A stretch of 55,929 nt of DNA, counting the filler, from Basidiobolus ranarum (taxonomy: Eukaryota), in NCBI GenBank assembly GCA_040143965.1. It is 4 parts of 4 records of this genome, joined end to end, with 100 filler letters (N's around TTAATTAATTAA, not from the genome) between each part and the next. Parts side by side here need not be neighbours in the genome. Positions count along the whole stretch, not along the records: positions 42,072 to 55,929 come from JASJQH010000455.1; 3 more parts are not named here. One strand, 5' to 3'. This document shows, one piece after another, positions 5,046 to 55,929 of this stretch. The stretch's first letter is position 1. Every line of letters starts with the position of its first letter. The translations under genes were made by a program, and so were the position numbers. The notes beneath the pieces were generated by a model. It did not search any database. It had not been told where the DNA came from and saw only the letters and a program-made list of their open reading frames with translations.

Positions 5046-7738
5046 ATGGCAGCTTCCGACAGAATAATATTACCAACTAACGTGAAGCCTTCTCACTATG
5101 TTGTCTCTTTAACTCCTGACCTTGAGAAATTCACCTTTGACGGATCCGTGGATACAACGTATGCCTTTTAACTATATTTTTGGTTTATCTTGGAAGTTCA
5201 CTCGATATTCACCCTTATTATGACCTATATAGTATTACTATCAACGAGAATACCTCCAAAATCACCCTCCACGCTAAAGAGGTCCAAATTCACAGTGCTT
5301 CCTTAAGCGGGAACATATCCAAGACCGAACATGACAGTACTGCTACTGATATTTCATATGATGAAAAGCTTGAAACTGCCACCTTGACTTTCCCTCAAGA
5401 ACTTCCTGCTGGCTCGGAAGCTATATTAAGTATCAAGTTCAGTGGTATTCTAAACGATAAGATGGCAGGTTTCTACAGAAGTTCCTATAATGATAAAGAT
5501 GGTAATAAACAACATATGGCTGTTACTCAATTCGAGGCCACCGATGCTAGAAGAGCCTTCCCTTGTTGGGATGAACCCGCACTTAAGGCCACTTTCGATA
5601 TTACCCTTCGTGTTCGTAAAGACCTTACCGCTCTATCTAATATGAACGTTATCTCTGAGAGTGAAGTCGATGGTTTGAATGAAGTCAAGTTTGCTACCAC
5701 CCCAATCATGTCAACATATCTAGTTGCTTTTGTCGTTGGTGATTTGGAATACATCGAGGCCTCCACTTCCGGAATCAACAATGGTGAGCCTGTACTTTGT
5801 CGAGTTTACACTCTTAAAGGGCAATCTAACCAAGGCCACTTTGCTCTTGACGTTGCTACCAAATCTTTGGAATACTTCTCGGAGGCCTTTGGTTCCGCTT
5901 ATCCATTACCTAAATTAGATCTTATTGCCATTCCAGATTTCGGTGCTGGTGCCATGGAGAATTGGGGATTGGTCACATTCCGTAATGTCGTTCTCTTATT
6001 TGATGAAAAAACCAGTTCTTCAAGAATCAAGTTGAGAATCGCTAATGTAGTCGCTCATGAGCTAGCACATCAATGGTTTGGAAATTTGGTCACCATGGAG
6101 TGGTGGAATCACCTTTGGCTTAACGAAGGGTTTGCCACATGGGTCGCTTCTCTAGCTGTTAACAAACTTTTCCCGGATTGGAATGTTTGGACTCAATTCG
6201 TGGTGGATGATTTACAACGCGGTCTTCAACTCGATGCACTTAGAAGCTCTCACCCCATTGAAGTGGATGTCCGTGATCCCGCGGAGATTAATCAAATCTT
6301 CGATGCTATCAGCTACTCTAAGGGGGCCAGTGTAATTAGAATGTTGAGTGCCTTCCTTGGAGAAGAAGTTTTCTTGAAGGGAGTTCGAGCATATTTGAAA
6401 AAGCACGAGTACGGGAATGCCAGTACTCAAGATCTATGGGACTCACTTAGTCAAGAATCTGGACATGATGTCGGGAAATTCATGACATTGTGGACCAAAC
6501 AAGTTGGTTACCCGGTACTGACTGTTACCGAATCTGAGGGGAAATTGAAAGTACGTCAGTCTCGTTACCTTTCTAGCGGTGATGTTTCTCCTGCGGATGA
6601 TACCCAATTGTGGTGGGTTCCACTAAGTATCTCTGATGCGTCCAACGTCGAAAAGTGCACCAACGATATCTTGACTGAAAGAGAAGCTTCCTTCACTATT
6701 CCTCAAAGTGGTTTCTATAAACTCAATTCTCAACAAACCGGTGTTTATCGCGTTCATTACCCTACTGATGCCCTCAACAAGCTCGGTGAGGCGGTGAAAC
6801 AAAAGCAAGGACTTACAGCTAGTGATAGGATCGGTATCGTGGCTGATACTGCCGCTTTGGCCTACTCTGGATTCAGTAAAACCTCGGATTTATTGAGTTT
6901 ACTCCAGAACTTTGAAAATGAAGAAGATTACACCGTCCTGAGTGAAATTTCTTCCCGTCTTCACTCACTTATCTCTGTGTGGTACCAGGAGCCTGAGGAA
7001 GTCATTCAAAAGATTCTGGCCATTCAACGTAATATTTTCGCCAAACAAGCCAAAAAACTTGGCTGGGAGGCTCCTAGTGAGGAGGATTATCTTTCATCAC
7101 TTCTTCGTAACTTAGCTATTGCCATGGCTGGTAAGGCTGGCGATGAAGAAATCATTCAAGAGGCACAACAGAGATTTGCGAAATTCATTGAGGGTGATGA
7201 AGCTGCCATTCATCCTAACCTTCGTAGCACTGTTTATGGTATTGTTGTAAGAAATGGTGGTCAACAAGAGTACGAAGCAATTCAGAAGTTATACGAGGAA
7301 ACCACCACTGCTGATCAGAAGTTGTTCGCTTTAGCCGCTTTAGGTGCCACCAGACAACCTGAATTGATCCAACGTGCCTTGGATTACTCCATTAGTGAGC
7401 ATGTTCGTCCTCAAGATATCATCTACGTTTTAAGCACACTCTCTAGTAACCCCAAGGGTCGTGAACCCCTCTGGAAGTTCGTTACTAGTCACTGGGACTC
7501 GTTGTCTGAACGTTATGAAGGTAGTATCGCAACTTTGGGTAATATCATTAAAAACGCTACCGGAGAGTTTACCAGTGAAGAGAAAGCCAAGGAAGTGGAG
7601 GAGTTCTTTAAAACCAAAGATACAAAGGATGTCGCTCGCCCCTTACAACAATCTCTTGAAAAACTCCGAGCCAACGCGGCTTGGTTGAGCCGTAGTCGTG
7701 AAGATGTGGAGAAATGGTTAAAGGAGAATTCCAATTAA
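5046..7738 (+). CDS. APE2: M1 family alanyl/puromycin-sensitive aminopeptidase (Ape2/Aap1-like); one intron at ~5159-5232
   Basis: Starts MAASDRIILPTNVKPSHY. Contains TQFEATDARRAFPCWDEP, GAMENWGL, the HELAHQWFGNLVT..WLNEGFA zinc motif and an ERAP1-like C-terminal domain. Confidence 0.95.
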
Positions 7739-13941: not shown

Positions 13942-14041
13942 NNNNNNNNNNNNNNNNNNNNNNNNNNNNNNNNNNNNNNNNNNNNTTAATTAATTAANNN
14001 NNNNNNNNNNNNNNNNNNNNNNNNNNNNNNNNNNNNNNNNN
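13942..14041. other. Artificial contig-joining linker (N44-TTAATTAATTAA-N44)
   Basis: Exactly 100 nt; the central 12-mer has stops in all six frames; identical to the two other linkers. Confidence 0.97.
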
Positions 14042-22527: not shown

Positions 22528-24423
22528 CTAGAGACCAGTCTCTTTTAATATCGTTTCGAATACCTTGAGCATCTTCCGGCGCGCTCCCAGAGCTGCAACC
22601 CCTTTCTGGGAAAGTTGATCATCATTCATTCGAACGATATCTTGCCATTTCATTCCTTCAAAGAGTGGAGTGTATTTATGCAGACGAAGGCTTCGAAGCC
22701 ATGCAGGGATGTCTATTCCAAGATGTTGCATCAGTAAAACAAAATTAATGACAAGGTTTGAATGGAAACATACCATTCAATAGCTCCAAGTCGACGCCAT
22801 CTTGAATCTTATTATCTTTAGCCAAATTACGTTGGTTATTCAGCCGACTGACTCGATCACTACGATAATCCTCGTCGTTAAAATTATCAGTCATGCTAGC
22901 ATATTGCTTGTTGTGAAGCCCCTGGGGCATATGGCGTTTCATTCCATCCCGCCCCCAATTAGTAGAGAATAGTCCAGGTGGAGTGGGGGAGGTGGGTCTT
23001 GAGCCAGGATAAGAGTTATTATTTGGTGGAAACATCGGGGATTGAATAGGTGATTGTAACCCATTAGAATAAGGCGGGCTTCTTATATCGCTCTCATAGA
23101 CAGATCTTCCAATAGCCGATCCTGGGGCGCGATTGGCACCAGGCGATGAATAAACATCAGGGACATTGATTGTTAGTCCAGTGGAGTTGGTACAGGTTCC
23201 TCTTTCAAATTTATTCTCATATCTCTCTTTATTGGAGTTTGCTAGTCTCCATTGGAATAGACCTAAACCATTAGAGTCAACATCTGCGGCAGATTTGGGT
23301 CGTTCTATAGCTTTAGCATACTCTCCCCAGCTGGAAGCCGAAGGTGATGTGCTTATACCCCAGGTAGATGTACTCAGAGAGCTATATTCGCTCATGGTGG
23401 ATCTTGGACGCTCCTTAAAAGAGCCAGCAATCGACCGTGAGCCTCCAAGAGCGTCGATACCACAAAATGATCTAGGTCTTTCACTTTCTCTTCGGTCAAC
23501 AGCGCGAGAGGTATTATTAGATGACACAAAGTTTCTGAAAGCTGCATTGGTGATGGTAAAGACAGGATCAGTTTCTGCTTCAGCATGAGAAACAGGCCTA
23601 ACGGGAAAATATTGGGAGTTGTTGGAGTGTTGAGGCTGAGTCTCTAAGGGATTAAGGAGAGCACTACCTCCGGTTGGTTTATCTTCCTGTTGCCCCAGAG
23701 ATTTAAAGAATGCAGCAGCCTCTTCAGGAACACTGACAGGCATAGAATAGCGATTATATAAACGTCTAGATGAGCGATTTATGATCCCAGAGCCAACTGA
23801 AATATTACGAGCGTCTTGTTGCAAAATACTGATTGTGGATTTATCTTGGACATTTGATATAGGCGACCTCTTCAGAGTTTCCTCAACTTTGTTTACATAA
23901 TAAGTAGTATCAGATGCATCTTGATTGAATTTCTTGATAGAAAAAAATTTGAGCCTTACCTTTCTCAACAGTGTCAGGAGATAGGGCAGGTCTTGTAGGT
24001 TCCTTGTTAGAAAGTTGTAAGAGTACGACAACAAAAAACCTAACCTGAACCGGAGTTGAGAACTGAAGTAGGCTATACATAGCTGCAGTCTTCTCAACGT
24101 CAGACAAAGTTATGTACCATTTCTGAATGGTGTTTAGTTCCTCTTTGAAACTTTGAACGAAATTAGCAGAACTCATTTCTTCCAGAGTTTTCTCGTATAG
24201 ATTTTGCTCTTCAATCCATGGGTCTGTATGTATAAATGTCTGAATTAAAAAATAAGAACATGGCAGAGGATGTCCTAAGTAACGGACCTTGGGGTTCCTT
24301 AAAACCAAAAGGGGGAAATATTGCGGAAAGTGGGCGAAAACTACTATTGGAGACCTGTTGTGGGTCAATTGGCCTTCCTTGCCGAAAAGATAACGACTCA
24401 AAAGTGGTTTGCTGGGCAGCCAT
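22528..24423 (-). CDS. VTS1: Smaug/Vts1 SAM-domain RNA-binding protein (multi-exon)
   Basis: N-terminal [60 protein letters not shown]-terminal [44 protein letters not shown]. Confidence 0.93.
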
Positions 24424-27966: not shown

Positions 27967-28066
27967 NNNNNNNNNNNNNNNNNNNNNNNNNNNNNNNNNN
28001 NNNNNNNNNNTTAATTAATTAANNNNNNNNNNNNNNNNNNNNNNNNNNNNNNNNNNNNNNNNNNNN
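27967..28066. other. Artificial contig-joining linker (N44-TTAATTAATTAA-N44)
   Basis: Identical 100-nt spacer. Confidence 0.97.
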
Positions 28067-28074
28067 TATTCATA

Positions 28075-31000
28075 TTACATGGAGCTAAGTGCATCATTTT
28101 GTTCATCAGCAACGGTGATTACTTGTTTGAAAGCATTACCAACATCTAGAGTGGTAGATCTTTCATAAGCCTCTGGTGTTCGATCAAGGATTTTTTCCAT
28201 TTCATCTAGCGATAAGACACTATCTCCATTATGAATAATTTTGGCATTTTCGTCAGCATTCTCAAGAATCTCCATTAGATCCTCGATATTGATTCTAGTA
28301 GAAGCTTTACCATTGTTTCCTTTGAATTGTCTTTTATGAATCACCAATTTCTCTAATGTTCTTTTGCTGTTGGCTCTCTCTAAGATTTGAGCCTCTACGG
28401 AGTTCGAAGTAACGAACCGGTATACGATTACCGGTTTGGTTTGTCCAATGCGATGTACACGATCTTGAGCCTGTAGATCCATTTGAGGATTCCAATCATT
28501 ATCAAATAGAATGACGGTGTCTGCGGCAGTTAGGTTGATCCCCAGCCCACCTGCACGTGTACTGAGTAAAAATATCTCGATACTATGATCAGTATTGAAC
28601 TCATGAATTTGTTCACGTCGCTCCTCTTGATGAATACTGCCATCTATGCGACAACACTTCCACCCCTTCAAGATCATTAACCAGTCTTCGATGATATCTA
28701 GCATCTTAGTCATCTGGGAGAAAATCAAGATACGATGGCCTCTACCAATTAAGGTGGTAAGTAACTGATTCAAAAGAATCATTTTTCCACTGGAGGATTG
28801 GACCTCCTCGGTTACATTCAAGTAACCAGTTTTATCATCATATGGACCGTCGAATAGATATGGATGATTACATATTTTGCATAATTGCATCATTATCGTC
28901 TGCAATTTCATGTGTTTGAATACCTTCTGATTTGGTGCTTGGAGTTGAACTGAATCAGACGGCTATTCTCTCAAAGAATGAAATATTCAAAACTTACTGT
29001 CTTTGGTCATTGGCATTGGCACTGGCATAGCCTCTGAGTCTTCAAACTCTTCTATAGATTCGTTTTGATCGAAAAACTCCTCGTCTGATATCTCTGCATA
29101 ATTCGTATTCTTAGTAGCTGATCTACGACGACTGCGGTCTTGGACACAGCAGCTGGTGAGTATCATTATTAAGTAGGAAAATTTAAGGTAGGAACTACAT
29201 ACTTGCATCCATATCATCACCATCGCTTTCAGCTTTTCCTTCAACAATACCCAGTCGCTTCTTCAAGAACTCATGGATTTGGCCATTCAAAGTGGCATCA
29301 TAGTATTCTTTCTGTTTAGCGGTCATTGGCGCATACAATACATATTCTCTCTTCTTGGGTAATTGGAATTCAACTGAAGAAGAAAATGTTAAGATATTGT
29401 TAGGCGATGTTCAAAAGGGCAATTACATCGTACCATCCAACTTGAGTCTTCTTAATAAGAATGGCTTGAGGATATGATGAAGCTTCGAGATGATATTATG
29501 TTGAGATTCGTCACTAATCACTTTGTCTTTTCCTTTTTGCTCGTTGAGATCATTGAAATCAAACCAACTTTGGAAGATCTCCACACTGTCGAAAATATCT
29601 GGCAAAAGAAAGTTGAGCAATGACCAAAGCTCCAGAAGATTGTTCTGAGTATCATTAGCAACAATCAATATCTATGCCTGTATATCCAAAACTGACCTGA
29701 AGTGGCGTTCCAGTAAGCAATAATCGATTTGCACTATGATAAGATTTAAGTTCTCGAACAAGTTTACAATTCATATTTTTGATTCGGTGGCCTTCGTCAA
29801 TAACTAAGTATTTCCAGGCGTATTTCTGACTTTTCATTTAGTCTCTGGAAAATCAATGTAAAAGTTGAGTTGAAACTCACTTGAAGAAATTTACGGTCGT
29901 TCATGATCAACTCATACGAGGTGACCACTACAGGGAATGTTTCACCAAGCTTACTCATTCGCTTCCGACGTATATGAGCCCTCTCTTCAATCGAGCCATG
30001 GTAAAGGACAACTGGGATGGTGGGAGTGAATCTGTGAGTGAGAATAAGTATGGGTTTCTTGGCAACTAGAATTTGGAAACCCTCTACCTATTAAATTCGC
30101 TCACCCAATTAGCAAGGGTAGACATAGGTGCGATCACCAGAAATGGACCCCAGACATTACGCTCACGTAAATATGCTAGGAAACTAATTGTTTGAAGTGT
30201 CTAGTTTAAAGAAATTGGTAAACAAAGGGTGTAGTTCTACAAACGAAACAAGCTGAATCTTACTTTGCCAAGACCCATCTCGGCTGCCAAAAAACCATTC
30301 AAACCATTCTAGTATAGAGAGACCAGCCACTCGAATCCAGTCAATTGATATTCTTTCAAGATACCACCAGTGACTAGAGATGGTTGTCGAGGAGAGACGA
30401 TTTGACCATTAATGATTCTGGTACTCGGTGTCTCATCTGGAATGACAGGTCCTTCATCTTTGTGCCGCTTGGGAGGACTCTATAATAAGTACTTTGAGTG
30501 GTAATGTAATCCAAATCTATATCAAGTTAACTAACTGTCTCTTCGATTGATTCGGAGATTTCTACACGCTCCCCATTTTTCCTTTTAAGTCCACCAACTT
30601 TCTTATTTCCTTGTTCCTCGCGAATTTTTTCTCGTTTCTCTTGTTGTTCTTTTTCTAATCTCTGAGAAAGAAATTGAGAATATAATGTGGATTTCTCTAA
30701 GAGGTAATTTAATCGATTTAATCTACTGGTTTCTGTTTCCCGTTTTAATTCCATCATAGCCTAAAAAGTGAAATGATTAAATAATCGAGTTGTACACTTT
30801 GTTGATTCTCTTCTATAGTAAGGAACTAGAATGGTTGTTTACTCCCAAAGATAAATCTTCTATCATATACCTGTTGCCTTTCGGTTAGATTGTTATTTTC
30901 ACTAGGAGGGGTAGCATTTTGTTCGACTTCTAGCCTTATTTCACTTGGTTTTTCGAGTTTCTGATCCGTGAAGCTATTGTTATTCTCTGAACTTTCGGAA

Positions 31001-31701: not shown

Positions 31702-33003
31702 CTATGGATCGTAGGTTGTGCTGTCGGGATAATCATCGATGTCATGTGATGTGATATGATAATTTGTATCAGAGATGTTTTTGGTAGCTACGTATGCGAA
31801 ACCCAAGGCAACATAAAATAGCGCACAAATCACTATTATCCAGGTAATTGGAGAAATTCGCGACAAACTGATATACCAAGCCACCGCTGTTCCTCCACTC
31901 TGAATTGCTTTATAGAATCCGGCATAACGTGAAAGTATCATCGCATTATTGGTCATAGCCCCCATCATCCAATAGCACCAACTCTGAACAGTGGCGTCCG
32001 TAAACCCGCTTAACAGCATCAAGACAAGTGACGCACCATATGAGTCATCGAGAATATCAATTCTTGAGCTTACCAGGCTGATCACGTCTGGATTGTTTAA
32101 TTCCAAAAAAAGACAGCCAAGCCACGTGGCTGTTGTGAAGAAAGCAACAAACAACAAGCCCAGTCTAGCTTTTTTAGACCTAACACATAGAGGGTTATCG
32201 AGATACTGACCGAAGGTGAATGCGCCCAGCATTTGAGAGGCCCAGTAACAGACAGTGTTGAGTGCGACTGTTCGAACAGTAAACAGTTCATGTGAAAAAT
32301 GACCCAGTCGATAGCTGTAGTAGAAATTGGTGTAGAAGAAGATCGGGAAAAGCAGGAGAATATTCTTATTCAAAAGAGTTCTTCGTATTTGATTAAGCTC
32401 CTGACTCATATTGAACCCAGTTTTACTGGTAACTCGGGATCCATCTTCACGTATCACTCGTGCCGGAGAGACCATGAAATAAGAAAGGCACAAACCAAAA
32501 GCCATCAGGCATAAGAACCATATTGTAATATAGTTCGATTGTGTTGAGAAGAAGGGCAAGAATCCACTGATAAGCGAGCCGAGATTAAATAGTATCCAAA
32601 ATATTCCAAAAAAACGGCCTTTTTGATTCTCCATGGGATACGACATTATAATGGTACCTGCTGCAGTCCATAGGAGTGAGGCGCCTGCACCAAGAATCAC
32701 AGACCCTACCACCGGAAGGAAATCGACCTTGAACTCTCGATACAGCCAGAGGCAGCACACATAAATCATGTATGGTATACATCCAAATATAACACTAATA
32801 CGGGGCCCTAGGTAGTTGTGGGCGCTTCCGGACACTATGGAGCATAAAGAGAAGGAGGCATACAGGGCTATATTATTCCAGTTGGAAAGAGTTGAGTTGT
32901 TGCTCTCCAGGTCTCCTAAGCTGTAATAAATATTGTATGTTCCTACTATAAAGCAGCATACTAATGATACTATTAATAATTGGATTGTCGGGGCTTCTAT
33001 CAT
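31702..33003 (-). CDS. UNC-93-like major facilitator superfamily membrane protein, intronless
   Basis: About 12 hydrophobic segments; ILGAGASLLWTAAGTIIMSYPMENQKGRFFGIFW and YWMMGAMTNNAMILSRYAGFYKAIQSGG. Likely ATG at 33003. Confidence 0.88.
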   Translation of the reverse strand: MIEAPTIQLLIVSLVCCFIVGTYNIYYSLGDLESNNSTLSNWNNIALYASFSLCSIVSGSAHNYLGPRISVIFGCIPYMIYVCCLWLYREFKVDFLPVVGSVILGAGASLLWTAAGTIIMSYPMENQKGRFFGIFWILFNLGSLISGFLPFFSTQSNYITIWFLCLMAFGLCLSYFMVSPARVIREDGSRVTSKTGFNMSQELNQIRRTLLNKNILLLFPIFFYTNFYYSYRLGHFSHELFTVRTVALNTVCYWASQMLGAFTFGQYLDNPLCVRSKKARLGLLFVAFFTTATWLGCLFLELNNPDVISLVSSRIDILDDSYGASLVLMLLSGFTDATVQSWCYWMMGAMTNNAMILSRYAGFYKAIQSGGTAVAWYISLSRISPITWIIVICALFYVALGFAYVATKNISDTNYHITSHDIDDYPDSTTYDP

Positions 33004-35175
33004 GGTTGTTTTTTGCGGAATAGAACTGAACAAAATCTTTTTGAACGTACGAAACTCACAGTTAGATAGAAGAAAGCGCTCTACCACAGACTACTATGAA
33101 TTACTATTATACAAAAGGATATACACTAGACTATTTGCTTATAATAAGTACGAACCGCTATCATAAAACTTTATAAGAGGAGAAGAGAGGGAGGGTGCGA
33201 TATATGGTTCAAGTAGCTGAACGGGTATATTCCAATCCAAGGCTGGCTCGAACTCTCTAGGACTATGACACAAGCAAATGGAAAGAACAGCGAAATATCT
33301 AGATTTTAACCAAAAGCCATGTAGGGCTTCAATCAGTTTGAATTCAATATCAGAACATTAAATTTCCCATTCGGATATATTGATCCTAACTCATCGATGA
33401 GCAAACTCCTCTCTCTTGTTTGGGGTGAATAGGTAGTGTCACAAGAAGCCTCTCACATTTTTAGAGACCACTTCTCTCAACGACATACTTGAATTCATTG
33501 AAGCAATAAAATATATTCCATATTAGATTTAATTAAATTACTGACCGGGATCAGGAGACACTGTATTGGTCTTGAACCTTGTTTTAAACTTAGAATGCTA
33601 TAACTCAGAGAAACCATTGGCCTCCCTAATTTTGCACAACAATCTTTGAGTTCAAGGTTGAGTGATGTATCACATGTGGGTTGGGTATATTTAAGTAGTA
33701 ATATTGGCTTCTGTCAAACAGAGCTTTATCAAACAAAGGGAATTAATATGCCTTTAGAGAACGATGACAACTAATAAAAGTGAAAATACAGGCATTAGAT
33801 GGAGTGAAATCCACATCGATGCAGTCAAATGGCTAATCACAACGTTGGAAGAAGGTTGTACAATAGAGTGAAATATGCTCACTGCATTGCACAAAGTCCG
33901 AGCCATAAAAGGTGCTTGGCCAACCCAGCACTTTGACGAACCTTCAGAAACTTAACAAAGGTATTGATTCTCGATAATCTGTATCACTAGAAGGTAGCAT
34001 TGATATAATTTGTCCAATGGAATATGGTGTCACAAAGTTCAACCAGTAAACCATAGTATGAGTCTTGGGGAATACGTATCAATAAATAAAAAGGTCTAGG
34101 AAAGCGTACCATCTATTGCTCAAGTTTCAATCGAAGCCTCCATAGATTATAACTCGTTCGAGTAGATCCCAGTACAGTCAACACGAAGTAATATGAGGAT
34201 AAAATTTGACAGGATTAGGCCTGGTCTCTTGTCTAATTTATATAGTGAACAATTTTATCACTGATTCTGCTGGCTCGACAGCTGAGGTTGCATTTTTATT
34301 ATTATATCTCAAATTTAGCCATATATGTGGTTTTGGTTTATTCCAAATCATTTGGTAAATCTACTATTTTCAACATGAGGTGCGCAAGTGACCCTCGAGA
34401 ACTTTCAAGGAAAAGTCTCAATTGGTACGACCTCGCTTTTTTTCCAAGGAAGAAGGAAGTGCATAATTTCATCAGTCATATTGAGCCATGTTGGAGTCTC
34501 TCCGTGCTTTTGTGACTGGTAACAACATGCTGAAACCAGATACTAAATTGGTGTGTGTAACAATGGTGTTAGAAAGAGGAATTCAGGTTTCAGAGCAGTA
34601 TTTAGAGCATTGGACGGATGAAAGAATTCGCACAAAACTGAGGCAGCTTGAAAGTCTTGTTAAAGTAGTATATGTAAGTAATGGACACTGAGCCCCATGT
34701 AGGCACAAATGCAGCAAGTCGGATTAGATGAAGACCGTGAGGAAAATAGCTTACGTTCGGCACAAAAGATCATCTGATATTCAAAGTACTATCCAATCTG
34801 TTAGCTGAGTAAAATCAAGAATTCTCCTATTTGTTCAACTGCTGCTTTTGATTATCGAATTGACCATACCATGCACAGCAATTTTAGGCTTTACTGGGGA
34901 TTTTCAGGAACCAGTATGCAGACATAGAATAGATGCAGATTTAGTATGAACAGGAAAGATTCGGAAAAATTGAATTAGTTCCTATCGTTTCGGCAGATAA
35001 ATATGATCTTGCTCATTACAGCTAACTCCTCCTAGAAGTCCGCTAAACCGTGCTATGAAGAAGTGAAACATGTTCACTAACAAGAGAACCTGAATAAAGA
35101 TATATTGGAATGGTTACGGGAAATTGTATCTAGGCCAAATTAGGAATGAAAGGTAAGATTGCAAATAAAGATAAG

Positions 35176-35220: not shown

Positions 35221-35753
35221 AAATTAAAACCAATCTAGCGAGTAGATTGTGAAACACCTGAGCCAATCCAAAATTGATCCTTATGAGAATAAGCATACAC
35301 TCTTAAATTCATCATCTAGTTGTCATATAACTTGGCTTTCAAATTCAATTTAAGGAGCATGATTATCGTTACGAAACAGTATACATATACCGCGAAAGAA
35401 AACGTCACTAATGAAGAGTCTGATCGAAATGGCTTAATGGTGTGTCATATTGGATTGAAGCTGTGATCATAATTGGTTACGGCTTGAATGAATCTATCCA
35501 GGAAAAGTGGAATATTATTTAGTAAGGCAGTAAGGGTAGGTAATGCATACTATTATGTAATTGACGTGTCATGATCGCTAGCATTTACTAAACACTAAAT
35601 ATATACATAAAATACCAAAGTGCCTTGATTATACTAATATAGAAAGAGCAGTTCGCTCATGGGTTTGACAGTCTTATCACGATATCTAGGAGATTTTGTA
35701 TTTGTGTATCTATAAACTCTCATTATCAGGTTTGTCACTTCAGCATTCTAAAG

Positions 35754-38700
35754 ATGGATAATGGTAAGCTGTGTTTTCATTACAAGCAAGAAACAAAACT
35801 AATGGTTTTCATCTCAGTATACACTACTCCCATTCAAATCACTAAAGCTGAGGACGAAATTTTGAAGCGCGATTTAATTACTCGTGAGATCTCAAGAGAG
35901 TTTCGCCTCTTGCGGGATTCACTTTCTTTACACAATTTATTTTATGATATTTCTGTTCTACAGCCACCTAAACCACGACAATCTCTCTTATCAAATATCA
36001 CCTCATACTTTCGGTCCTCTGATAAAGAACAAACAGAAGAACCTACTTCAAACTTGACAATACCAAAAGATACGGAAACACCGTTACTTAGATATGCCTT
36101 CAACAATTTCGTCCTAGATTTTCCTTTTCTAAGATATGCTGAAGCGAGCTTTTGGTACAATATTCAGCAATTTTTAGACGCTTACGGAGCATTAAGATTC
36201 GGCACTTATGCTGTGGGGAAAGAAGAGGCAAGTAAACGAGAAAAACTGGCAAAAAAAGTGGAGCTTGGCTTGGTGTTGTTATTCAATACGGGTATATGTA
36301 CTCTGAAAGATAATAAACTGGAAAATGAAGATCCAAAAATCGAGAATGTAATCAAATCGAATATGGATCCCAAGTCAGTCCAAAGTTCTGACAAAGTAAC
36401 ACATCCTATAGATATTATCTCAGTTAGGCGTGTAACAGAGAGAGGCTTTATCAGGGGAAAGGAAAAACCTGTAAGTAACGGAAGTTAGATTCTTCGGATT
36501 TCTGTAATTTCCTTGGTGCTTATAAGTTTACGTTTTTATCAGCTGTTTATCATCCAGTCGAATATCGAGTCCAATCAAGGTCACATTGTAGGACGCACGG
36601 TTACTCAAATTCAGAAATACATCGCCAAGGTATTTTATATATTTTTATCTGACATGCCTATATTTCGTTGCTGAACAATGTTACTTGAAGGTTCATCGCC
36701 TATTTCCAACTCTTGAAATCCCATCCCCACCTCCCAAATTTAAAGATCCACATGAAGGCCAGCTCTATCACGAGAAAAACCGCATTGCATTCCAGGCTCA
36801 CCTACGGATCTTAGTATCAAGTTCATGTATAGCGCGTAGTCGTCTTACCAAAGAATTCCTCAGTGATTCTCCTATTGAATTATTACCAGCTGATATCACT
36901 GATAAAGCGCAACGTGAAGTATTTAGTAGGAATCGCGCCGAAGAATACCAAAAGATCTTGAAAGTAGCTGAGGATAAGTCAGTCGAGCTTCGCGAGTCCA
37001 TTGAGCAGTTTACTAAAGAGATTCTTGAACCTGGTACATGCATCTTGAGTTCTGTAATGCCATAATATATTTCTGACATTGCGATAATTTGAAGGGGGCC
37101 TTAGTCGAATCTCTCAAGTTCTCCACGATATATCTGAGATTTCTCAACTTCCAGAAAATTTCCAAAAAATAGTTGAGTTAGCCAGAGTCAAGTAAGTAGA
37201 TGCGGATATCCATTTTTTCGTCTGATATCGCAGTACTAAATTTCTTTCATCTGTAAGTCTTGCCGCTACCCTTTATAGAGTCTTTTGCGCTGACGAAAAT
37301 GCCCCCGTCAATTTCCATCAACTTCAACAAACTCACGGATTGATTCCTTATCGTACCCTTAAAGGCATACTTAAGATCTCTAATCCGACTGCAATGATGA
37401 AGGGTGTGCTGGATCTGTTCTTGGCCCAACCTTTTGGTCATGCAAGTATCATCCAAAGGTATACCTATTTCTATAGGGAATCAGATAAATCTCCACTAAC
37501 AGTCTAATTGTATAAGGGTGGCGATTGCCAATCTTGGAGACTCCGCTAAGCAAAAGAGGCAGGATATTGAGATATTGAGAGCGGCTATTAATAATGATTC
37601 CCTTTGTGACAAGCTTTACAATTATGTAAATTCATCTGAGAAGCGTCCTTACGATGATGATGGTAGTTTGTTCAACTTTAAAGTAATTATTTTTCATTGA
37701 CCTGGATACTGAAACTTTACTAGTAGCAGAGTCCTCTGACCTTGACCGATTGATAAATGTAATCACTGATCAGAATATTCAGCCATGTATCAATCATGAC
37801 ACCATTATCATGTTAGACAGTGCTAAAGAAAACCTAAAACGAACTGGGACCGCACAGGAACTTCTCGATACTGATTGGAGCATTGAGAGTCTTTCATCGT
37901 CCGAAAGCGTAGAGCATGAAAAAAGCCAATGTATGTTTAACACCTCCGAGATGCAGCTTCGTCGGCTGTACCGCCTGCTAGTATTATACACACAAGCTCG
38001 TAATACTAAGCTTGCTATCGAGCTTGTGTTTGAAGGAGTTACTGGGGAAATTCTCAAGGAAATACTGACCATGTTTTATAGACCCCTTGCTCAGGTTTAC
38101 AAAGATGCTAACATAAGTGATTTTGTAATGGAGGTCAGTGGTTTCATAGATCAGTTGATCAAGGTAGTAGAGAATAGCCAGCAAAAACAAGGTATGCTCT
38201 TCTATTTTAAACTTGATGAACTGCCTAACTAAATTCTTTTCAATCTATGACGTTAGAATTGACTCCCATGGAAACTCTTAAACAATTCACCGAATTAGTG
38301 CAAAGCTATGAAGGCACCTTCTATCGTTTTGTTCACTCGCTATACCGTCAACGTACCGATGGCTTATTCCAACAGCTCATAATTTGGTTTGAACGGATAT
38401 TTAGTACCTTGCGTGTAGGTCTTAACTCCAAACCTATAGATCTTGGAAGCATCATAGATGAATGTATAAATAGCCAACAACAGGATCAATTCAAAAAGGA
38501 TCTTCAGGCGTTAAAAATATACACATTTGAAACTAAACTTCGTCGATATAAACGTCTACATAAGCGAATGATGGCCAATATGGGGGCCAAAGAAACGAGT
38601 ATAGACCAAATCACTAGTAACCGGCTTACGATTCCCTCCAGCATACTAAGAAAATACATGAAAGAAGCAGGATTGGAAATTTTGCCTGATACATTGCTGG

Positions 38701-39032
38701 AGAAACTCCGGACCTCAACCACCACTATATCACATTCGGCAGATTGCTCAAGATATGCTGAGAATTCGCAGCAGTTGCAGGATTTACTTGCTTCATCCGG
38801 AATTCAAGTATCCATTGACGATATGCTAGAAATGCAAGCAGCAGAATACGACTCGGATACTGAAGAAGGTGAGAATGGTGTGAATGGTGCACCTGGCTTT
38901 CTAAATCTAGAAAGATCTAACAAGAAAATCACCGAGCCGCAAGTACCCTATCCCAAGCTTACGTCAGTGCCAAACTTAGTTGGTAGGTTTATGGAGCAGA
39001 TCATGTGCAGCTTAAATACATCTTCCACTTGA
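35754..39032 (+). CDS. PX-associated (PXB) + PX + DUF3818 protein, YPR097W/Lec1-like (multi-exon)
   Basis: EDEILKRDLITREI, TPLLRYAFNNFVLDFPFL, FPTLEIPSPPPK..LYHEKNRIAFQAHLR, HGLIPYRTLKGILKISNPTAMMKGVLDLFLAQPFG and MFYRPLAQVYKDANIS. Confidence 0.82.
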
Positions 39033-39525: not shown

Positions 39526-41083
39526 ATGGCTTCAACTAAATACCTATCAAAGCGTTCACACAATGTGCATCAAGTGCCCAAACCTCTCCTGGAAGGAGCT
39601 ATGAGATTTATGGCCAACCCCTATGACTCTACTACTAATCCAGAAGGAATCGTGAATATTGGAGTTGCTGAAAACTCCTTGATGCACGAAGAACTTTTAG
39701 AAAAAGTATAACTTTCTTAGTCGCTGGTTGTTGCTTCATTTAAAGTACAGACAATAATTTTTCTCCTTCCAAATATAGTTAAAGCCAGCCTTGACTCTAA
39801 AGAAAGAGGTATGTATATCGATAATTAGGAATTAGCACGTTAATTGACACTTTCTCCATTGTCCATTAGTTTTTCAACTATGGTATGATGTTTGGAACAT
39901 TGGAGCTTCGTACACTTATGGCTGGCTTGTTCAATCGTCACTTTAACCCAGTTGAACAAATTCAACCATCTCATATCACAGTCCATAATGGAGCTGGACC
40001 GTCAATTGATTTATTGAGTTACGTTATATCAGATCCGGGTGATGGAGTACTAATTACCACCCCTTACTATGGTAATATTAAATATGCCTTTCCAAGATTA
40101 GCATTAAAATGGGGTTTTAATGGCATATTTTAGGTGGATTTGACTATGATTTTGAGGCTCACGCTGAAGTTAAAGTAATCCCAGTGAATTTGGAGGGGAA
40201 AAGCCCATTCCATGTGGACCATATCGAATGTTTAGAGAATGCCATGCTAAAGGCAAAGGAGGATGGAATTCGAGTTCGCTCCATGGTTTTGTGTAATCCA
40301 CACAACCCCTTGGGGAGGTAATTTGAGCGACTATATTTTGTCAGTTCCTATTGAAATTAATTTATATCAATATTCAATAGATGCTATCCATTAGAGGTTT
40401 TAATCGAACTTCTACGCTTTGCAAATCGACACGATCTCCACGTGATTTCAGATGAAATCTATGGACTAAGTTGGTATGAACATGACAATGATGCAACACC
40501 ATTCATATCGTTGTTGTCAATACCGAATTTGTCGAATTTCATCGACCCAAAACTAGTGCATTTCATTTGGTCATTTAGTAAAGATTTCTGCATCAACGGT
40601 CTAAGAGTTGGAATAGTCATGTCACCATTCAATACTGAGGTGATTAGTAATCTACAGGCACTCTGCTTGTTCAACGCCATCCCTAATACCTCGGATCACT
40701 TGATACGGGAATTGCTTGTAGATACGGAATGGGTGGATTGGTTTATTCAAGAAAATCAACGTAAATTGCTAAAGAATTACACGCAAACCGTAGAGTTTCT
40801 CGATCGACATCGGATTCGATATAATCCCAGTACAGCTGGTCATTTTATCTGGACTGATTTTACACCTATCACCCAGAAAATCGCCATGGTTCATGGTTCA
40901 GAGAAGGCCGAGCGGGTACTTTGGAACGCTTTTATTGAGAATGGTGTTTATAGTTCGTTAGGCGAGGCCTTCCATTCATCTGAACCTGGCTATTTCCGAA
41001 TCACCTTTAGTATTGATTGGGATGTTTTAAACCTGGGCTTGTCCAGACTAGTGAAGGTCATAGATTCCTTTGAGGAGAGTTGA
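39526..41083 (+). CDS. PLP-dependent aminotransferase class I/II, ACC-synthase-like (multi-exon)
   Basis: NPYDSTTNPEGIVNIGVAENSLMH, DPGDGVLITTPYYGGF, LCNPHNPLGRCY, ISDEIY, WSFSKDFCINGLRVG (PLP lysine) and EPGYFRITF. Confidence 0.9.
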
Positions 41084-41971: not shown

Positions 41972-42071
41972 NNNNNNNNNNNNNNNNNNNNNNNNNNNNN
42001 NNNNNNNNNNNNNNNTTAATTAATTAANNNNNNNNNNNNNNNNNNNNNNNNNNNNNNNNNNNNNNNNNNNN
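41972..42071. other. Artificial contig-joining linker (N44-TTAATTAATTAA-N44)
   Basis: Identical 100-nt spacer. Confidence 0.97.
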
Positions 42072-42123: not shown

Positions 42124-44531
42124 GGAGTGATAGGAAATATGAGAACAGTGGCCCGTTGGAGTGCGGAGGGAAGCATTGATTTCCTTTGCTATCCCAACTT
42201 CGACAGTCCATCGGTGTTCGCGCGTATGCTAGACAAAGACCGGGGTGGGCACTTCTCCATTTCGCCCGTTGATTATCGCTCGAGCAAGCAGCAATATCTA
42301 CCAGGCTCTAATATATTAAATACAAAATTCATTTCAGAGGAAGGTGTATGCGACTTGGTGGAATTTATGCACCATCCCAGCAGCAGCGACAGTTTAACGC
42401 CACTATACCCGTGGCTGATAAGAAAGGTAAGGATGATTCGTGGAAAGATCGATCTACAAGTGGAGTGCTATCCTGCCTTTAATTATGGTTTAGATACACA
42501 TGAGGTTTCAATCAAAGATCCAACTACAAGCCCATCTCATGATGATCCGTTTCAGCAAGATGAGATTCATTTTAATTCCCAGTCACTGTCTTTGAGACTT
42601 CAAAGCGTACATAAGGCTTGTGAAGGAACCCGAGTGGGTCTTGAATGGAAGACGAATGAATCAGATATCGGCCCCGGGGTATCTGCAAACTTTACACTAA
42701 GTGAAGGCGAAGAGATCATCTTTGTCTTGGGAGAAATCCCCACATCGTCTAGCGCTCAACCAAAACTGAAGAGCGTCACTCCGGATTTCTTGCACCACCT
42801 GTTTAATGAGACCTTGTTGTATTGGAATGATTGGATTTCTCAATGTAAATATGATGGGAAATGGCGAGAGACAGTCCACAGAAGCGCATTTATGCTAAAG
42901 ATGCTTACATATTCCCCCGTAAGTAGATCAGTCATATCAATTATTACCTTCCGTCACCAACTTCTTCTTTTCAATAGACTGGGGCCATCATAGCTGCACC
43001 AACCTTTAGTCTGCCTCAAAGTAACCAATATGTTGATGATGCCCTCTTAGTATTCTGCTTACTAATACTTGAATTCAGTCCTTGGGGGATCTAGTAATTG
43101 GGACTACAGGTATTGTTGGATACGTGATTCATCATTCACTCTATACGCGTTACTGCGCATAGGAATGACCGAGGAATCGGACGCATACATGAAATATCTA
43201 GAGAAAATCTTGGATAGTGTATGTATTACACTGATGTACAATACTTTTTATTCCACAATTCTCACGACAAAACACCATTTTTAGAGCGACGATGGTTCCA
43301 TCCACCCTATCTACACTATTCGTGGTGAGGAAACAATGGAGGAGAGAACACTAGATCATTTCGATGGCTATAAATCGTCCCGACCGGTAAGAGTAGGAAA
43401 TGCAGCAGCTAATTTCCCACAGCTAGATATTTATGGAGAGCTGTTGGATGCAATATATCTATACAGCAAATATTCAAAGCCCATTTCGTACGATATGTGG
43501 AATCATATTCGTAAGATGGTGAATTATGTATGCGAAAATTGGCAACGTGCTGATGCAAGTATCTGGGAGTCCAGAGAAAAGACTCAAAACTATGTGTTTT
43601 CTAAAATCATGTGCTGGGTAGCTATAGATAGAGGTAGATTTTCCCTCTTTCCGTGCTTGCTCAGTATTGTTGTAACAACTGTCTCTCACTATATTAGGAC
43701 TACGTCTTACTGAAAAACGAAGCTGGTATCCTTGCCCTGAAATGTATTATTGGAAAGAAACCCGAGATAAGATATACACTGAAATAATGAATAAGGGGTG
43801 GAACGAAGAAAAAGAAATATTCGTACAATCCTATGAATGTAACAATATTCTTGACGCCTCGGTATTAATAATGCCCTTAGTTTTTTTTATTTCTCCTACG
43901 GATCCACGTCTATTAAAAACCTTGCAAGCCATCAGAAAGCCTACTGACAAAGGAGGGTTGATTGAAAACAACCTCGTATACCGATGTTTGTACGATTATT
44001 GATGAATCGAAGTAATGCTCGAAGCTTTCTAATACACTTTATCAATCCCTCTCCCACAGATAACTGTTCCAGTAACGAAAAGGTTCAAGGAGAAGAAAGG
44101 TAATTCAACTAAATATTTCTTTTATCGACTCTAATAACACAACTCTACTATTATAGCCATTCCATTTGCACTTTCTGGCTAGTAGAGGTAATTAGATCTA
44201 TCAAAAGATAGAATCAAACTTGAATTATTTGTCAACACACTTTATATTCCTAGGCGCTCACCAGAGCAGGAAAGTATGATAAGCAACTGCTATACGAGGC
44301 GATGGTGATTTTTGAGCAGGTTCTAAGCTATTCTAATCACCTGAATTTATATTCGGAAAAAATCGCCAAAAGTGGAGAATGTTTGGGGAATTTTCCTCAG
44401 GTATGCTTGGCTTTCGTTCGAAAGTATGAGCTTGTACTAACAATCTTAACAATAATTACCTTTAGGCTTTCACTCATATGGCATTGATATCCTCTGCGTA
44501 TAATTTAGACCGAGTATTGTCTAAAAGATAA
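42124..44531 (+). CDS. Glycoside hydrolase family 15, trehalase-like type (multi-exon; 5' end truncated or uncertain)
   Basis: [71 protein letters not shown] (acid Glu) and [22 protein letters not shown]. Confidence 0.9.
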
Positions 44532-49100: not shown

Positions 49101-51529
49101 AATCGCGAAGTCTATTCTACCATTCACGGCACAAGTAAAAAGCGATCCTAGTGAAGGTATATATGTAAAAAATGATTATTTCCATTAAACAATATACTTA
49201 GCAAATCTTTAGATATCAAGGAACTACAAAGCCTGCTAAAAGAGGACAACCTCACAGAAATTGAGTACAAGAATGTAAGCGACACTATCAAGCGATTCAC
49301 AAAAAATGAAAATAAGGGGTTACTAAAGCGATCGATGGTTGTTGGTATGTAGCATTAATATTCTCGAGAAATGTGATGTATCTTGAGGTCATATTTGTAA
49401 TGCTTAATAACTTCGTCATTTAGGTACAACCTGCCTGGCGTCAACATTCGATATATTTGAGAACATTCCGTTTCCAATTATTATTCTTGACGAATCCAGT
49501 CAAGTTACCGAACCTATGGCATTAGTACCCGTTTGTCGCTTTGCGTGTGAAAAGCTAATTCTTGTTGGTGATCCACTTCAAGTATATACATTTTGATATT
49601 TATAATTCATCAGCACTTCTTTAAACTGAGTTAATTATAGTTACCGCCGACTCTTTCTACTAATTCCTCTAAAGATTCTTCGAAGTGTGGACTTGATAGG
49701 CCTCTTTTCGACCGACTAATACAGGTATTATTTGTAAAGGAAACTAACCTCGTTACTGAAGTAATTAACATATTTGCAAATTAGATGGGAGCAGAGGTTT
49801 GTTTTGAATGTATCTCGACGAATTTACTGTATTTTAATCATATCGTCCTAGCCTGTACTATTAAAAACCCAATATAGAGTATGTTTGTATGTGATTTTTT
49901 ATTTCAAAGCATATTATTTAATCCAGTTTTTTCTAGTGTCACCCTACTATCTCTGCGCTAAGTAACCGCCTATTTTATCAAAGCAAACTCATCAATGGTG
50001 TCAAAGAATCAGAACGTCAGCCTCTGGCACTCGATCTTCCTCACTTATTGTTTATTAATGTTAATGGAAATGTTAGTTGAATATTGTTAAACTACTAGCT
50101 TCGCTCATGCTCTCAACTAACGCGGTATTCATATAGGAACAACAACATTCTCGATCAAAATCTTATATAAATAATAATGAGGTTGGTGTTGTAGTTCTTG
50201 TTGCTAGGGGATTACTTGAAATAGGAATTCGACCGGAGAATATTGGCATCATCACGCTATGTAAAGTACAGGCTTACTCATATATGTACCTCAATTACAA
50301 AGTCAAATTTATCTTTTTTAATGGCAGATAAACAGCAAGCTGATCAAATAGACCTGAAGTTGAAAGATAGCCGAAGCATGAATAAGTTTAATTCAATACA
50401 GGTACATTAAATTTCGAAAGCTGTCTCTAGATTTTTTCATAAGCTCACATTTTCAAAAATTAAAGGTTAGCACTGTCGACGCTTTTCAGGTACCAAACAT
50501 TTATAGATATGGTCTTTAAGGGTAGTGTCTGACATTAACCTACTAGGGAGCGGAGAAAGAAATCACAATTGTCTCCTGTGTTCGGACGCGCCAAATCGGG
50601 TTCATTGACAATCGGCAAAGAGTTAACGTAGCACTTTCGCGAGCCAAAAGGTTTTTGAACAGTTACAATAACAACAATATAGTTTTAAATATTTAACCAA
50701 GTATACAGACATCTGATCATTGTTGGATGTGCGAAACTATTAGAAACCAATCCACTCTGGAAGACGATTGTGACTGAATGCAGATGTAATTTCAAAGTTT
50801 TTGTTCTTTAATAGATATCTGCCTAATGCTTTATTATTTTCCACAGCAAATCTCAATGGATTTATCCACGCCGCTCAAGTTCCCTCACTATTAAAAAGCT
50901 TTGGATGCTCCGGAGAATTTTCTACGTCACTGGCTCCAAATATGAATCAGGGAGAAAACCCGGTCTCTCCCCGAACTAGGTTATCAATCAATTCAACTTT
51001 CAACAGCCGTTCAAATATTCTAGCCAATTCAGATGCAGATGACCTGGAAGCTGAGGAATTTCAAATTCCCAACAATTCAAGTAATAACCCCAATATGTCT
51101 AATTCAAAGAAGTCTCTTGGCTATATACAAGAGTCAAGCCATCAGCACACTTTGATTAATTCTTGCCAAGCATTGAATGACAACAAATCATCGAAGCACA
51201 TAGATTCGGAGAACGCTTTCATCGTTGATGAACCCTTCTCAGATAGCATCCAACTCCGTGAACGTGAAGAACATGATTTGTTAGAACTTTTTAGAAATAA
51301 GGACAGTAGTACCACATCAAGTCAAAAAACGATGACAACAACTCCCCAAATTTCATCAGATGAACAAGATCATTCCATTCGTAACCAGTTCGAAAATGAT
51401 ACTGAGAATTCTTGGAGAAATGATAAACCCTCTTCTGCAACAGAACCACCTAGTGCCAAACAACAACAGAACCAGAACCCTTTGTTCACTATTCTAAGGA
51501 ACTTAAATCAACGTGGCAAGAACGAATAA
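46137..51529 (+). CDS. ZGRF1: ZGRF1-like protein: N-terminal DUF2439 plus C-terminal Upf1/DNA2-like SF1 helicase (>20 introns)
   Basis: MSSEEIKFEVLYTNQKIKKNKTWHDG (DUF2439), YSKDDIWAIS..FYGPSSSG, Walker A VHGAYGAGKSYLI, NIAVDNILLGL, ILDESSQVTEP, LILVGDPLQLPPT, LKTQYRCHP, VSTVDAFQGAEK and RVNVALSRAKRHL. Confidence 0.87.
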
Positions 51530-54675: not shown

Positions 54676-55929
54676 ATGAAGTTCGCTAAACAACTTGCCT
54701 TGCGCTCCATCCCCACTTGGGCCATATATTATGTTGATTATAAACAACTCAAAAAATTCATCAAAGATTCTGAACTTCAGTATGAAGGTATTTACTTTGC
54801 TTGTCTTGGGCATATGTTCGATACTTCGAGTATCATTCACTAATTGAATTACCCTTGAAATGCTCTTTGTCCACTGCAGAGAACAACAAAGACCCTGCTC
54901 AGCTAGATAGGATCACTCAGGAGTTCAAAGCGCATATATATGCGGAAATTGACAAAGTAGAAGAAAGGTACATCAATAAGGAACAGGACTCGAGTGAGAA
55001 GCTTCAAATTTTGAAAACTAAGGTACTTGCATTATTCTACTTCATGATTTTCGAGTTCTTCGTGCATAATCCATTATCTGCTACCGACTTATTAGTGGCG
55101 ACCTGACCTTTCAGATGAAAATCAGGAGCAATGGTTTGTTATTCTCTTTTTAATTGGGGTGCATCAAACTCATACTCACATTACTCATTTCCCTAGGATT
55201 AAAGATTTTACGAAACTGTTACAGTCGCTCGAATATCTATCAGGTAGATTACATTTCTATGGTTATGTGCCACCCTCAGCTCAAGCTAAGTCTGATCCTC
55301 TGGTTATTCATTTCAGAATTTACGCAAACAAATATTGTCGGGTTTCAAAAAATTCTGAAAAAATTCGACAAGCATTTCGGTGTTACTTGGGGCAAAGAGT
55401 TCTGGCCAGAAATCACTACAAAGAAATTCGCAAACTCTGAAAAAGAAGAGAATTTACTGCATGAAGCTAGACAGGTACAGTCCTTTTCGTCGATCCGTAA
55501 TGCCTGCTTGACTTTGAATCTAACATTGTGTATATCTTCAGGTATGGCGCAAGAGAGTTCCTGTTGCTCCCCTTGAGCCAAAGAGAAGTCTTGATGTGGT
55601 TAACTCTGAAATTCCCACTGTATCAGCATTGGATCTTCAGTCACTCTCCAGTGGCCAAGTGCACCGTTTTTGGGTAGTTCTTTCCGAAGACGGACTAAAT
55701 CTACCTATAAAGGTCCCAGTAATCATTGCGAAGGTATAGCCTGTGCTTCTTTTCGTCTTAAATAGCCACATTTTAATCATGACTTTCCGATGAACGTTTA
55801 TTAGGGAATCAAACCTGGACCTACATTAGGCATTACAGCGGCGTTGCATGGAAACGAATTGAACGGTATCCCTTTAATCCACCGACTATTCCGTGAACTC
55901 AAGTGTGGAGCATTACATGGAATTGTTGT
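54676..55929 (+). CDS. SPX domain fused to a succinylglutamate desuccinylase/aspartoacylase (AstE/AspA, M14-like) domain; 3'-truncated by the window end
   Basis: Exons 54676-54787, 54880-55022, 55096-55133, 55197-55243, 55317-55474, 55542-55733 and 55805-end splice in phase. They give MKFAKQL..YYVDYKQLKKFIK..NIVGFQKILKKFDKHFG (SPX), then [39 protein letters not shown] (HGNE zinc motif). Confidence 0.85.

Follow-up and report, generated by a model that had tools for sequence, protein, structure and literature searches.

An SPX domain joined to an AstE/AspA-type deacylase: a predicted fusion protein of Basidiobolus ranarum with relatives in early-branching fungi and some protists

The 55,929-nt stretch of Basidiobolus ranarum DNA analysed here (the window, along whose full length all positions are counted) contains at 54676-55929, on the plus strand, the 5' half of a gene predicted to encode a soluble two-domain protein of ~517 residues. 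In this protein an N-terminal SPX domain is followed by a short linker and by a putative zinc amidohydrolase of the AstE/AspA family. We regard the combined assignment, of the SPX-AstE/AspA architecture and of orthology to similar proteins elsewhere, as virtually certain. As a whole, the reading that we favour is that of an active deacylase gated by its SPX domain within an old orthogroup, and we consider this reading likely. The design is already in sequence databases, where it is common to many early-branching fungi and some protists under the names "hypothetical protein", "SPX domain-containing protein" or "predicted deacylase".

Gene model and domain structure

Seven exons, joined through GT..AG introns of 63-92 nt with phases of 1, 0, 2, 1, 0 and 0 after successive exons, give 271 codons without a stop from the ATG at 54676. 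The first-pass annotation of this DNA had proposed seven exons with these phases, and the model stands: the joined translation equals a 272-aa database model of the same DNA (P0001) residue for residue. In a gap-free alignment with the N-terminal half of a B. ranarum protein of 517 aa (P0002; K7432_002412), 234 of 272 positions are identical (86%); exon 6 by itself is 97% identical to P0002. Since it equals P0001 and matches P0002, the exon reading is not a chance frame. The coding part within the window stops at codon 271 of ~517, where the window end cuts exon 7.

Exon 1 (54676-54787) holds the start ATG and codons 1-37 plus 1 nt, encodes the N-terminal SPX helices and ends at a GT donor in phase 1. 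The long SPX helix at about residues 38-85 is encoded by exon 2 (54880-55022; AG/GT borders, phase 0 after) and spans residues 43-85 in an AlphaFold2 model of the ortholog P0002. The 38-nt exon 3 (55096-55133) supplies the loop or turn between the long SPX helices (WRPDLSDENQEQW); it is present in P0001 and kept in P0002. The second long SPX helix begins in the 47-nt exon 4 (55197-55243; AG/GT borders, phase 1 after), and exon 5 (55317-55474) encodes the SPX lysine cluster together with the C-terminal SPX helices. Exon 6 (55542-55733), a single open reading frame (ORF) without interruption, bridges both domains: it encodes the tail of the final SPX helix, the linker (~55563-55604) and the first deacylase beta-strands. 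The AstE_AspA catalytic domain starts in exon 7 (55805-55929). All of these exons lie on the plus strand; the exon 5/6 junction falls at the end of the SPX domain and the exon 6/7 junction within the enzyme domain. An alternative exon 3 at 55115-55137 (GT-AG, equal phase) was dropped because it is not conserved. The WRPDLS..W stretch, which is present in B. ranarum too, is given only by exon 3 at 55096-55133. As a separate observation, intron 5 contains no in-frame stop, and a form retaining it (frame 55154-55576) would give an SPX-only product of ~200 aa.

Residues 1 to ~172 are predicted to form a complete SPX domain in which six putative ligand-contacting residues are intact. Against the Pfam SPX profile (PF03105; cut-off 27.8 bits), P0001 scores 68.2 bits, with the domain at its extreme N-terminus, and P0002 scores 62.5 bits. 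Exon 1 alone, from Met1, matches profile positions 1-31 of 340 at 37.1 bits; exon 5 alone matches positions 309-335 at 22.2 bits, which is under the cut-off by itself. The motif YVDYKQLKK lies in exon 1 and GFQKILKKFDK in exon 5. One paper (PMC9911596) assigns the SPX ligand surface of Vtc4 to a phosphate-binding cluster (PBC; Y22, K26 and K133) and a lysine surface cluster (KSC; K129, K132 and K136), and a second (bioRxiv 10.1101/2019.12.13.875393) gives an equal pattern for AtSPX1. The SPX domain in the window has the YxxxK and KxxKKxxK patterns with a spacing identical to that of the Vtc4 clusters. Its PBC consists of Y22 (54739-54741) and K26 (54751-54753) in exon 1 and K129 (55361-55363) in exon 5, which are kept in 36, 39 and 40 proteins, respectively, of an alignment of 41 fusion proteins, over which all residue conservation was counted. 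The KSC, encoded entirely by exon 5, consists of K125 (55349-55351; 39 of 41), K128 (55358-55360; 39 of 41) and K132 (55370-55372; 37 of 41).

In the AlphaFold2 model of P0002, which was built on 41 fusion sequences, helices at residues 3-171 (pLDDT ~85-97) form a helical hairpin plus a three-helix bundle. Foldseek matched this N-terminal half to the SPX domain of XPR1 (8tyu, target TM 0.85). A sequence search of the PDB gave 5ijj as the best SPX match (E 1.3e-7), and across the sequence and structure searches the SPX domains of Vtc3 and XPR1 matched too; 5ijj is described as the complex of Chaetomium Gde1 SPX with InsP6 (bioRxiv 10.1101/2019.12.13.875393).

Residues ~190-517 are assigned by sequence to the AstE/AspA zinc amidohydrolase family, as a DoeB-like member. 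Exon 7 alone matches the AstE_AspA_cat profile (PF24827; cut-off 25 bits) at positions 1-36 of 192 with 29.9 bits, P0001 scores 25.5 bits, and P0002 reaches 112.8 bits over residues 234-414, covering profile positions 1-192. The deacylase signature stretch quoted in the first-pass annotation spans the exon 6/7 junction. Two zinc ligands, identified by alignment, are encoded by exon 7: H245 (55847-55849), kept in 39 of the 41 fusion proteins, and E248 (55856-55858), kept in 40. The distal zinc ligand H330 and the aligned catalytic glutamate E388 lie beyond the window end; both are present in P0002 and each is kept in 40 of the 41. Two arginines, R287 and R374, are conserved in all 41. Together with the profile scores, these residues uphold the initial description of a complete SPX domain with an intact ligand-binding surface, joined to an AstE/AspA-type deacylase with an HxxE zinc motif. 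We consider the enzyme very probably catalytically active.

The structural comparisons place the enzyme half of P0002 with DoeB/EutE (N-alpha-acetyl-L-2,4-diaminobutyrate deacetylase; 6twm and 6twl), which Foldseek matched at E 1.5e-26 for 6twm (target TM 0.83-0.85, ~327 columns), and with 3na6 and 3cdx, which are structural-genomics proteins. More distant matches were CphZ (E 1.4e-18), AstE, MpaA and aminoacylase 3. The model has the two-lobed arrangement of DoeB, 3na6 and 3cdx, an alpha/beta catalytic domain plus a C-terminal beta domain. Sequence searches of the PDB matched 3cdx (1.5e-17) and DoeB (~1e-13), with the HxxE...H zinc site and the catalytic glutamate aligned; residues 221-230, from exon 6, also align to both. 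These proteins share the whole-domain fold and the zinc site with the fungal protein, but they are 20-22% identical to it, and the fungal protein has an SPX domain, is eukaryotic and lacks an ectoine-operon context. Among NCBIfam models DoeB (TIGR02994) matches best, at 64.8 against a cut-off of 402.7; AstE (TIGR03242) scores 20.6 against 305.65 and aspartoacylase (NF002601) 24.9 against 180.

The two halves are separated in the model (mean pLDDT 90.5, pTM 0.63) by a linker of ~15 residues that is predicted to be disordered (residues 174-187, pLDDT <50). Strands follow at residues 205-230, and the alpha/beta domain plus a beta-rich lobe extend to residue 517. P0002 has no ankyrin, GDPD, TTM or membrane segments.

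Distribution, ancestry and bacterial relatives

A protein search with P0002 returned 2852 matches at E <= 0.001 among 8000 scored candidates. Both PF03105 and PF24827 are found in 98 of the best 120 homologs listed; the other 22 have PF24827 only, and several of these are short or partial models. Fusion proteins come from Zoopagomycota, Mucoromycota, Chytridiomycota, Taphrinomycotina, plasmodiophorids and Balamuthia. The fungal sources named among the 120 include Entomophthoromycotina (Neoconidiobolus, Massospora), Kickxellomycotina (Coemansia, Kickxella, Linderina, Smittium and others), Mortierellaceae, Calcarisporiella and Jimgerdemannia, Glomeromycotina (Geosiphon, Ambispora, Paraglomus), chytrids (Synchytrium, Chytridium, Irineochytrium and others) and Taphrinomycotina (Saitoella plus three Pneumocystis species); those outside fungi are Plasmodiophora, Spongospora and Balamuthia. 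The architecture is thus not the rarity that the first-pass annotation had implied, as it extends over several fungal phyla plus protists. Its persistence in the reduced Pneumocystis genomes speaks for an important function. In Fonticula the enzyme is present and a Pfam scan detected no SPX domain. Saccharomycotina, Pezizomycotina, Basidiomycota, animals and plants are absent from the best 120 homologs listed, which is not evidence of absence from these groups. Over the full length of P0002, identity to other fungal fusions is 60-68%. Complete ORFs with both domains are present on assembled transcripts, P0395 (MMETSP) and P0109 (a transcriptome assembly), and lend indirect support to the fusion being carried on one mRNA.

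To place the enzyme half, we used an enzyme-only fungal model (P0094) in an exhaustive profile-free search, which returned 5263 representatives at E <= 0.001, of which 394 reached E <= 1e-30. Among prokaryotes, scanned with one genome for each species, at least 576 relatives were confirmed. The best 80 of these are 32-55% identical and are mostly from Saprospiraceae and other Bacteroidota, Myxococcota and Bdellovibrionota; the nearest are 45-55% identical to the enzyme domain over its full length. Enzyme-domain trees were calculated, leaving out five partial rows, with FastTree (165 rows) and with IQ-TREE in quick mode under a mixture model (76 selected rows), and we placed the root on a distant prokaryotic clade.

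In the FastTree analysis a single 43-row clade with a support of 100 unites the SPX-type proteins, of which 39 have SPX and 4 lack it; within this clade the fungal subclade of 25 rows has a support of 99. IQ-TREE groups all 35 eukaryotic rows together (SH-aLRT 91), with an SPX-type clade of 29 rows (93), a HutD-type clade of 6 rows (100) and the fungi as 14 rows (98); P0002 lies next to Neoconidiobolus and Massospora, near Mucoromycota. With this root, the eukaryotic clade falls within the near bacterial rows. On these trees, the family is an old eukaryotic orthogroup that was inherited vertically within fungi. A bacterial origin, if there was one, must predate the divergence of the fusion-bearing lineages, and the direction of any such transfer would depend on the root, which was set by us.

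A sister architecture carries a different N-terminal module. Seven of the first ten long representatives scanned have a HutD/Ves cupin (PF05962) ahead of the same deacylase subfamily; in ten further long representatives, which belong to a distant clade, only the catalytic domain was recognised. The HutD/Ves-deacylase clusters (P0140, P0141, P0142, P0146, P0161, P0170, P0199, P0392, P0399 and P0401) come from Absidia, Phlyctochytrium, Chytridium lagenaria and Acanthamoeba, and C. lagenaria has both the SPX type (P0056) and the HutD type (P0199). The C-terminal deacylase of these proteins is ~50% identical to the fungal enzyme domain and is likewise preceded by a putative ligand-binding module; they differ in having PF05962 instead of SPX and in their greater length, 650-900 aa. 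That one enzyme carries either SPX or HutD/Ves favours a logic in which a sensor gates the enzyme, and fits the N-terminal module being an exchangeable ligand sensor.

The nearest bacterial relatives are found in a conserved gene neighbourhood. Across 80 prokaryotic loci the deacylase has two conserved co-oriented neighbours, mostly abutting it: one of ~335 aa, of the GSH-S_ATP/RimK type (Pfam, 102.7 bits), and one of ~480 aa without a Pfam or NCBIfam family. Among the 61 nearest loci, many of them on cut contigs, the 480-aa gene is found at 29, the 335-aa gene at 22 and both at 18, with at least one of the two at 33; the 480-aa gene is at none of the 19 distant loci. This cassette, with the 480-aa ligase, the GshB/RimK-type ligase and the deacylase on one strand, is exemplified by L001 3398-6927. 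The initial suggestion that the enzyme half is nearest to bacterial proteins encoded beside rimK-type ATP-grasp genes therefore holds.

The AlphaFold2 model of the 480-aa protein (pLDDT 86.5, pTM 0.89) was matched by Foldseek to 3k1t, a putative gamma-glutamylcysteine synthetase, and to glutathione, homoglutathione and glutathionylspermidine synthetases, with a probability of 1.0 but low TM-scores of 0.3-0.47. A sequence search against the PDB gave nothing significant for this protein (best E 0.19). Based on its predicted fold, we read it as a divergent ATP-grasp amide ligase.

The deacylases of Saprospiraceae, Myxococcota and Bdellovibrionota are thus the nearest relatives of the fungal enzyme and have an active-site set in common with it, but they are stand-alone proteins of ~320 aa, lack SPX and are co-transcribed with the ligases. 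At 56 positions that are at least 90% conserved, the SPX clade and its near bacterial counterpart have identical residues, including the catalytic residues and a set of Arg, Asn, Tyr and Trp residues. The distant clade departs from several of them (Y341, C431, R497 and others), and the substrate class is therefore probably shared with the bacterial relatives. No ATP-grasp ligase was found among the 10 longest frames of the window that were scanned (ORFs of at least 110 aa), and no such gene adjoins the Basidiobolus gene among these frames. An Atlas cluster of look-alikes of the 480-aa ligase (score 0.98, 85 members, 539 aa) is 86% eukaryotic, with Mucoromycota the commonest source, and hints that fungi keep a ligase partner. 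Atlas look-alikes of the 335-aa ligase were in bacterial clusters only. In a homolog search with the bacterial 480-aa ligase, the best 120 listed were all Saprospiraceae-like, at 78-93% identity, and are uninformative on eukaryotes.

Proposed function and alternative explanations

The outputs of SPX domains include polyphosphate synthesis, phosphate transport and export, glycerophosphodiester hydrolysis, inhibition of the PHO-pathway kinase and ubiquitin ligases acting on transporters. To our knowledge, all of the outputs studied to date deal with phosphate directly. Gde1 (SPX-ankyrin-GDPD) and Vtc4 (SPX-TTM) resemble the Basidiobolus protein in having an N-terminal SPX domain, with its PBC/KSC surface, fused to a catalytic domain. 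They differ from it in their output, which here would be an AstE/AspA zinc amidohydrolase acting, by family chemistry, without phosphate, and the protein is known here from sequence and models. How an SPX domain can switch on an enzyme fused to it is illustrated by Vtc4 (PMC9911596).

We found no study of an SPX-deacylase fusion in PMC open-access and bioRxiv literature, with subscription journals outside this coverage. This agrees with the first-pass annotation, in which a deacylase was not among the known partners of SPX, and the SPX-coupled zinc amidohydrolase appears to be unstudied as a class. Co-mentions of the SPX domain and an amidohydrolase were single mentions in plant or algal papers. 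A fission-yeast paper that mentions both an SPX domain and a deacylase was set aside; the deacylase there is Bst1, which is unrelated.

In the mechanism that we propose, the enzyme would hydrolyse an amide adjacent to a free alpha-carboxylate, its substrate being a small N-acyl amino acid or a short non-ribosomal peptide. The substrate class would be that of the bacterial relatives encoded beside two ATP-grasp amide ligases. InsP7 or InsP8, reporting phosphate sufficiency, would bind the SPX domain and change the activity of the deacylase, possibly via contacts within one molecule or within an oligomer, in the way that SPX acts on the Vtc4 polymerase. Turnover of the metabolite would then follow cellular phosphate status. 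We lean towards control of the deacylase activity by inositol pyrophosphates (PP-InsPs). If true, a conserved SPX-zinc amidohydrolase would represent a further class of SPX output, with phosphate-free chemistry, and would suggest that phosphate status is tied to amino-acid or peptide metabolism. It would also offer a handle on the orphan bacterial cassette, as the substrate of either enzyme would probably explain both. The family is found in lineages without good genetics, but also in the tractable Mortierellaceae.

A number of points weigh against an SPX-gated active deacylase. The fusion needs the 67-nt intron 5 to be removed; if it were kept, the frame would shift and terminate at 55576. 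For this gene, the third zinc ligand and the catalytic glutamate are taken from the ortholog, since both lie outside the window. Given the pTM of 0.63 and the low-confidence linker, the model contains no fixed SPX-enzyme interface or domain orientation. The NCBIfam scores are far under their cut-offs, and the substrate is therefore not transferable from DoeB, AstE or aspartoacylase. The four rows of the 43-row SPX clade in which SPX is not detectable are P0104, P0130, P0133 and P0134; P0130 clusters with the longer P0395 (733 aa), which has SPX. The HutD clade is not joined to the SPX clade in the FastTree analysis, where its position is unresolved, and is joined in IQ-TREE only at the SH-aLRT of 91. 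The hint that fungi keep a ligase is a lead from a single Atlas cluster of look-alikes.

The absence of a rigid predicted interface would also suit an arrangement in which SPX does not gate catalysis at all. The SPX domain could instead, in a PP-InsP-dependent manner, tether the enzyme to a partner, a membrane or an oligomer or act as its scaffold, or the deacylase domain could report a metabolite and control what SPX binds. Stand-alone plant SPX proteins sequester PHR factors, which offers an analogy for such a reverse flow. That SPX domains act via protein partners is illustrated by the SPX1-PHR1 interaction (bioRxiv 10.1101/2019.12.13.875393). We nevertheless consider this arrangement unlikely, because the catalytic and zinc residues are kept in 39-41 of the 41 fusion proteins, so that enzyme activity is apparently under selection, and because HutD/Ves domains at the SPX position in the sister clade are easier to read as swapped allosteric sensors. 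It is less probable still that the enzyme is the ortholog of a characterised member (DoeB, AstE, aspartoacylase or CphZ) that gained an SPX domain. DoeB is both the best structural and the best NCBIfam match, a Smittium culicis record (P0091) is named after it, and CphZ is matched too at E 1.4e-18. However, the structural alignment with DoeB shows 20-21% identity, the family scores fall well short, and the nearest relatives (45-55%) are encoded beside two ATP-grasp ligases, not in ectoine, arginine or cyanophycin operons.

Two further explanations are highly improbable. The first-pass annotation had suggested a horizontally acquired bacterial deacylase grafted onto an SPX gene, here taken as a recent event specific to Basidiobolus. 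The closest non-eukaryotic relatives of the enzyme domain are indeed bacterial, and the eukaryotic clade nests among them under the chosen root. This suggestion is not sustained, as the same architecture is shared by 98 of the best 120 homologs listed, from many eukaryotic lineages; P0002 is 60-68% identical to the fungal fusions versus 45-55% for the enzyme domain against bacteria; and it lies inside the fungal clade (support 98-99) of one eukaryotic clade, with the gene containing six spliceosomal introns. We attach an equally slight probability to the single frame being an artefact, in which an SPX-only gene and a deacylase gene were joined by the choice of splice sites. Retention of intron 5, ending the frame at 55576, would be compatible with separate genes, but exon 6 is uninterrupted from the end of the final SPX helix via the linker into the first deacylase strands, and the same join is found in those 98 homologs and in the two complete ORFs on assembled transcripts.

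A broader view, which we offer tentatively and with a probability well below that of the SPX-gated deacylase itself, is that the fusion provides the controlled degradation step of an ancient, undescribed eukaryotic pathway that descends from the bacterial two-ligase cassette. In such a pathway the ATP-grasp ligases would build a small peptide-like metabolite, from which the deacylase would free an amino acid. Control by inositol pyrophosphates would have been imposed on the deacylase step in early-branching fungi, Pneumocystis, plasmodiophorids and some amoebae, and phosphate signalling would thereby reach into nitrogen and amino-acid metabolism; one possible purpose would be the supply or withdrawal of basic amino acids found together with polyphosphate. 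In the HutD/Ves paralog, a different ligand would gate the same enzyme.

Other features of the window

Elsewhere, long frames of the window belong to ordinary eukaryotic genes and encode an M1 aminopeptidase at 5141-7738 (plus strand), an intronless frame of 865 aa; the C-terminus of an SNF2-type helicase at 28075-28962 (minus strand); an MFS/UNC-93 transporter at 31702-33090 (minus strand); a PX-associated protein at 35643-39032 (plus strand); a class I/II aminotransferase at 40361-41083 (plus strand); and a trehalase-like N-terminal domain at 42124-42993 (plus strand). Open frames at 22745-24109 (minus strand, 454 aa) and 50774-51529 (plus strand, 251 aa) match no Pfam family at E <= 0.001. 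Paired 44-base runs of N at 13942-14041, 27967-28066 and 41972-42071, spaced by ~14,025 bases, resemble masking rather than assembly gaps.

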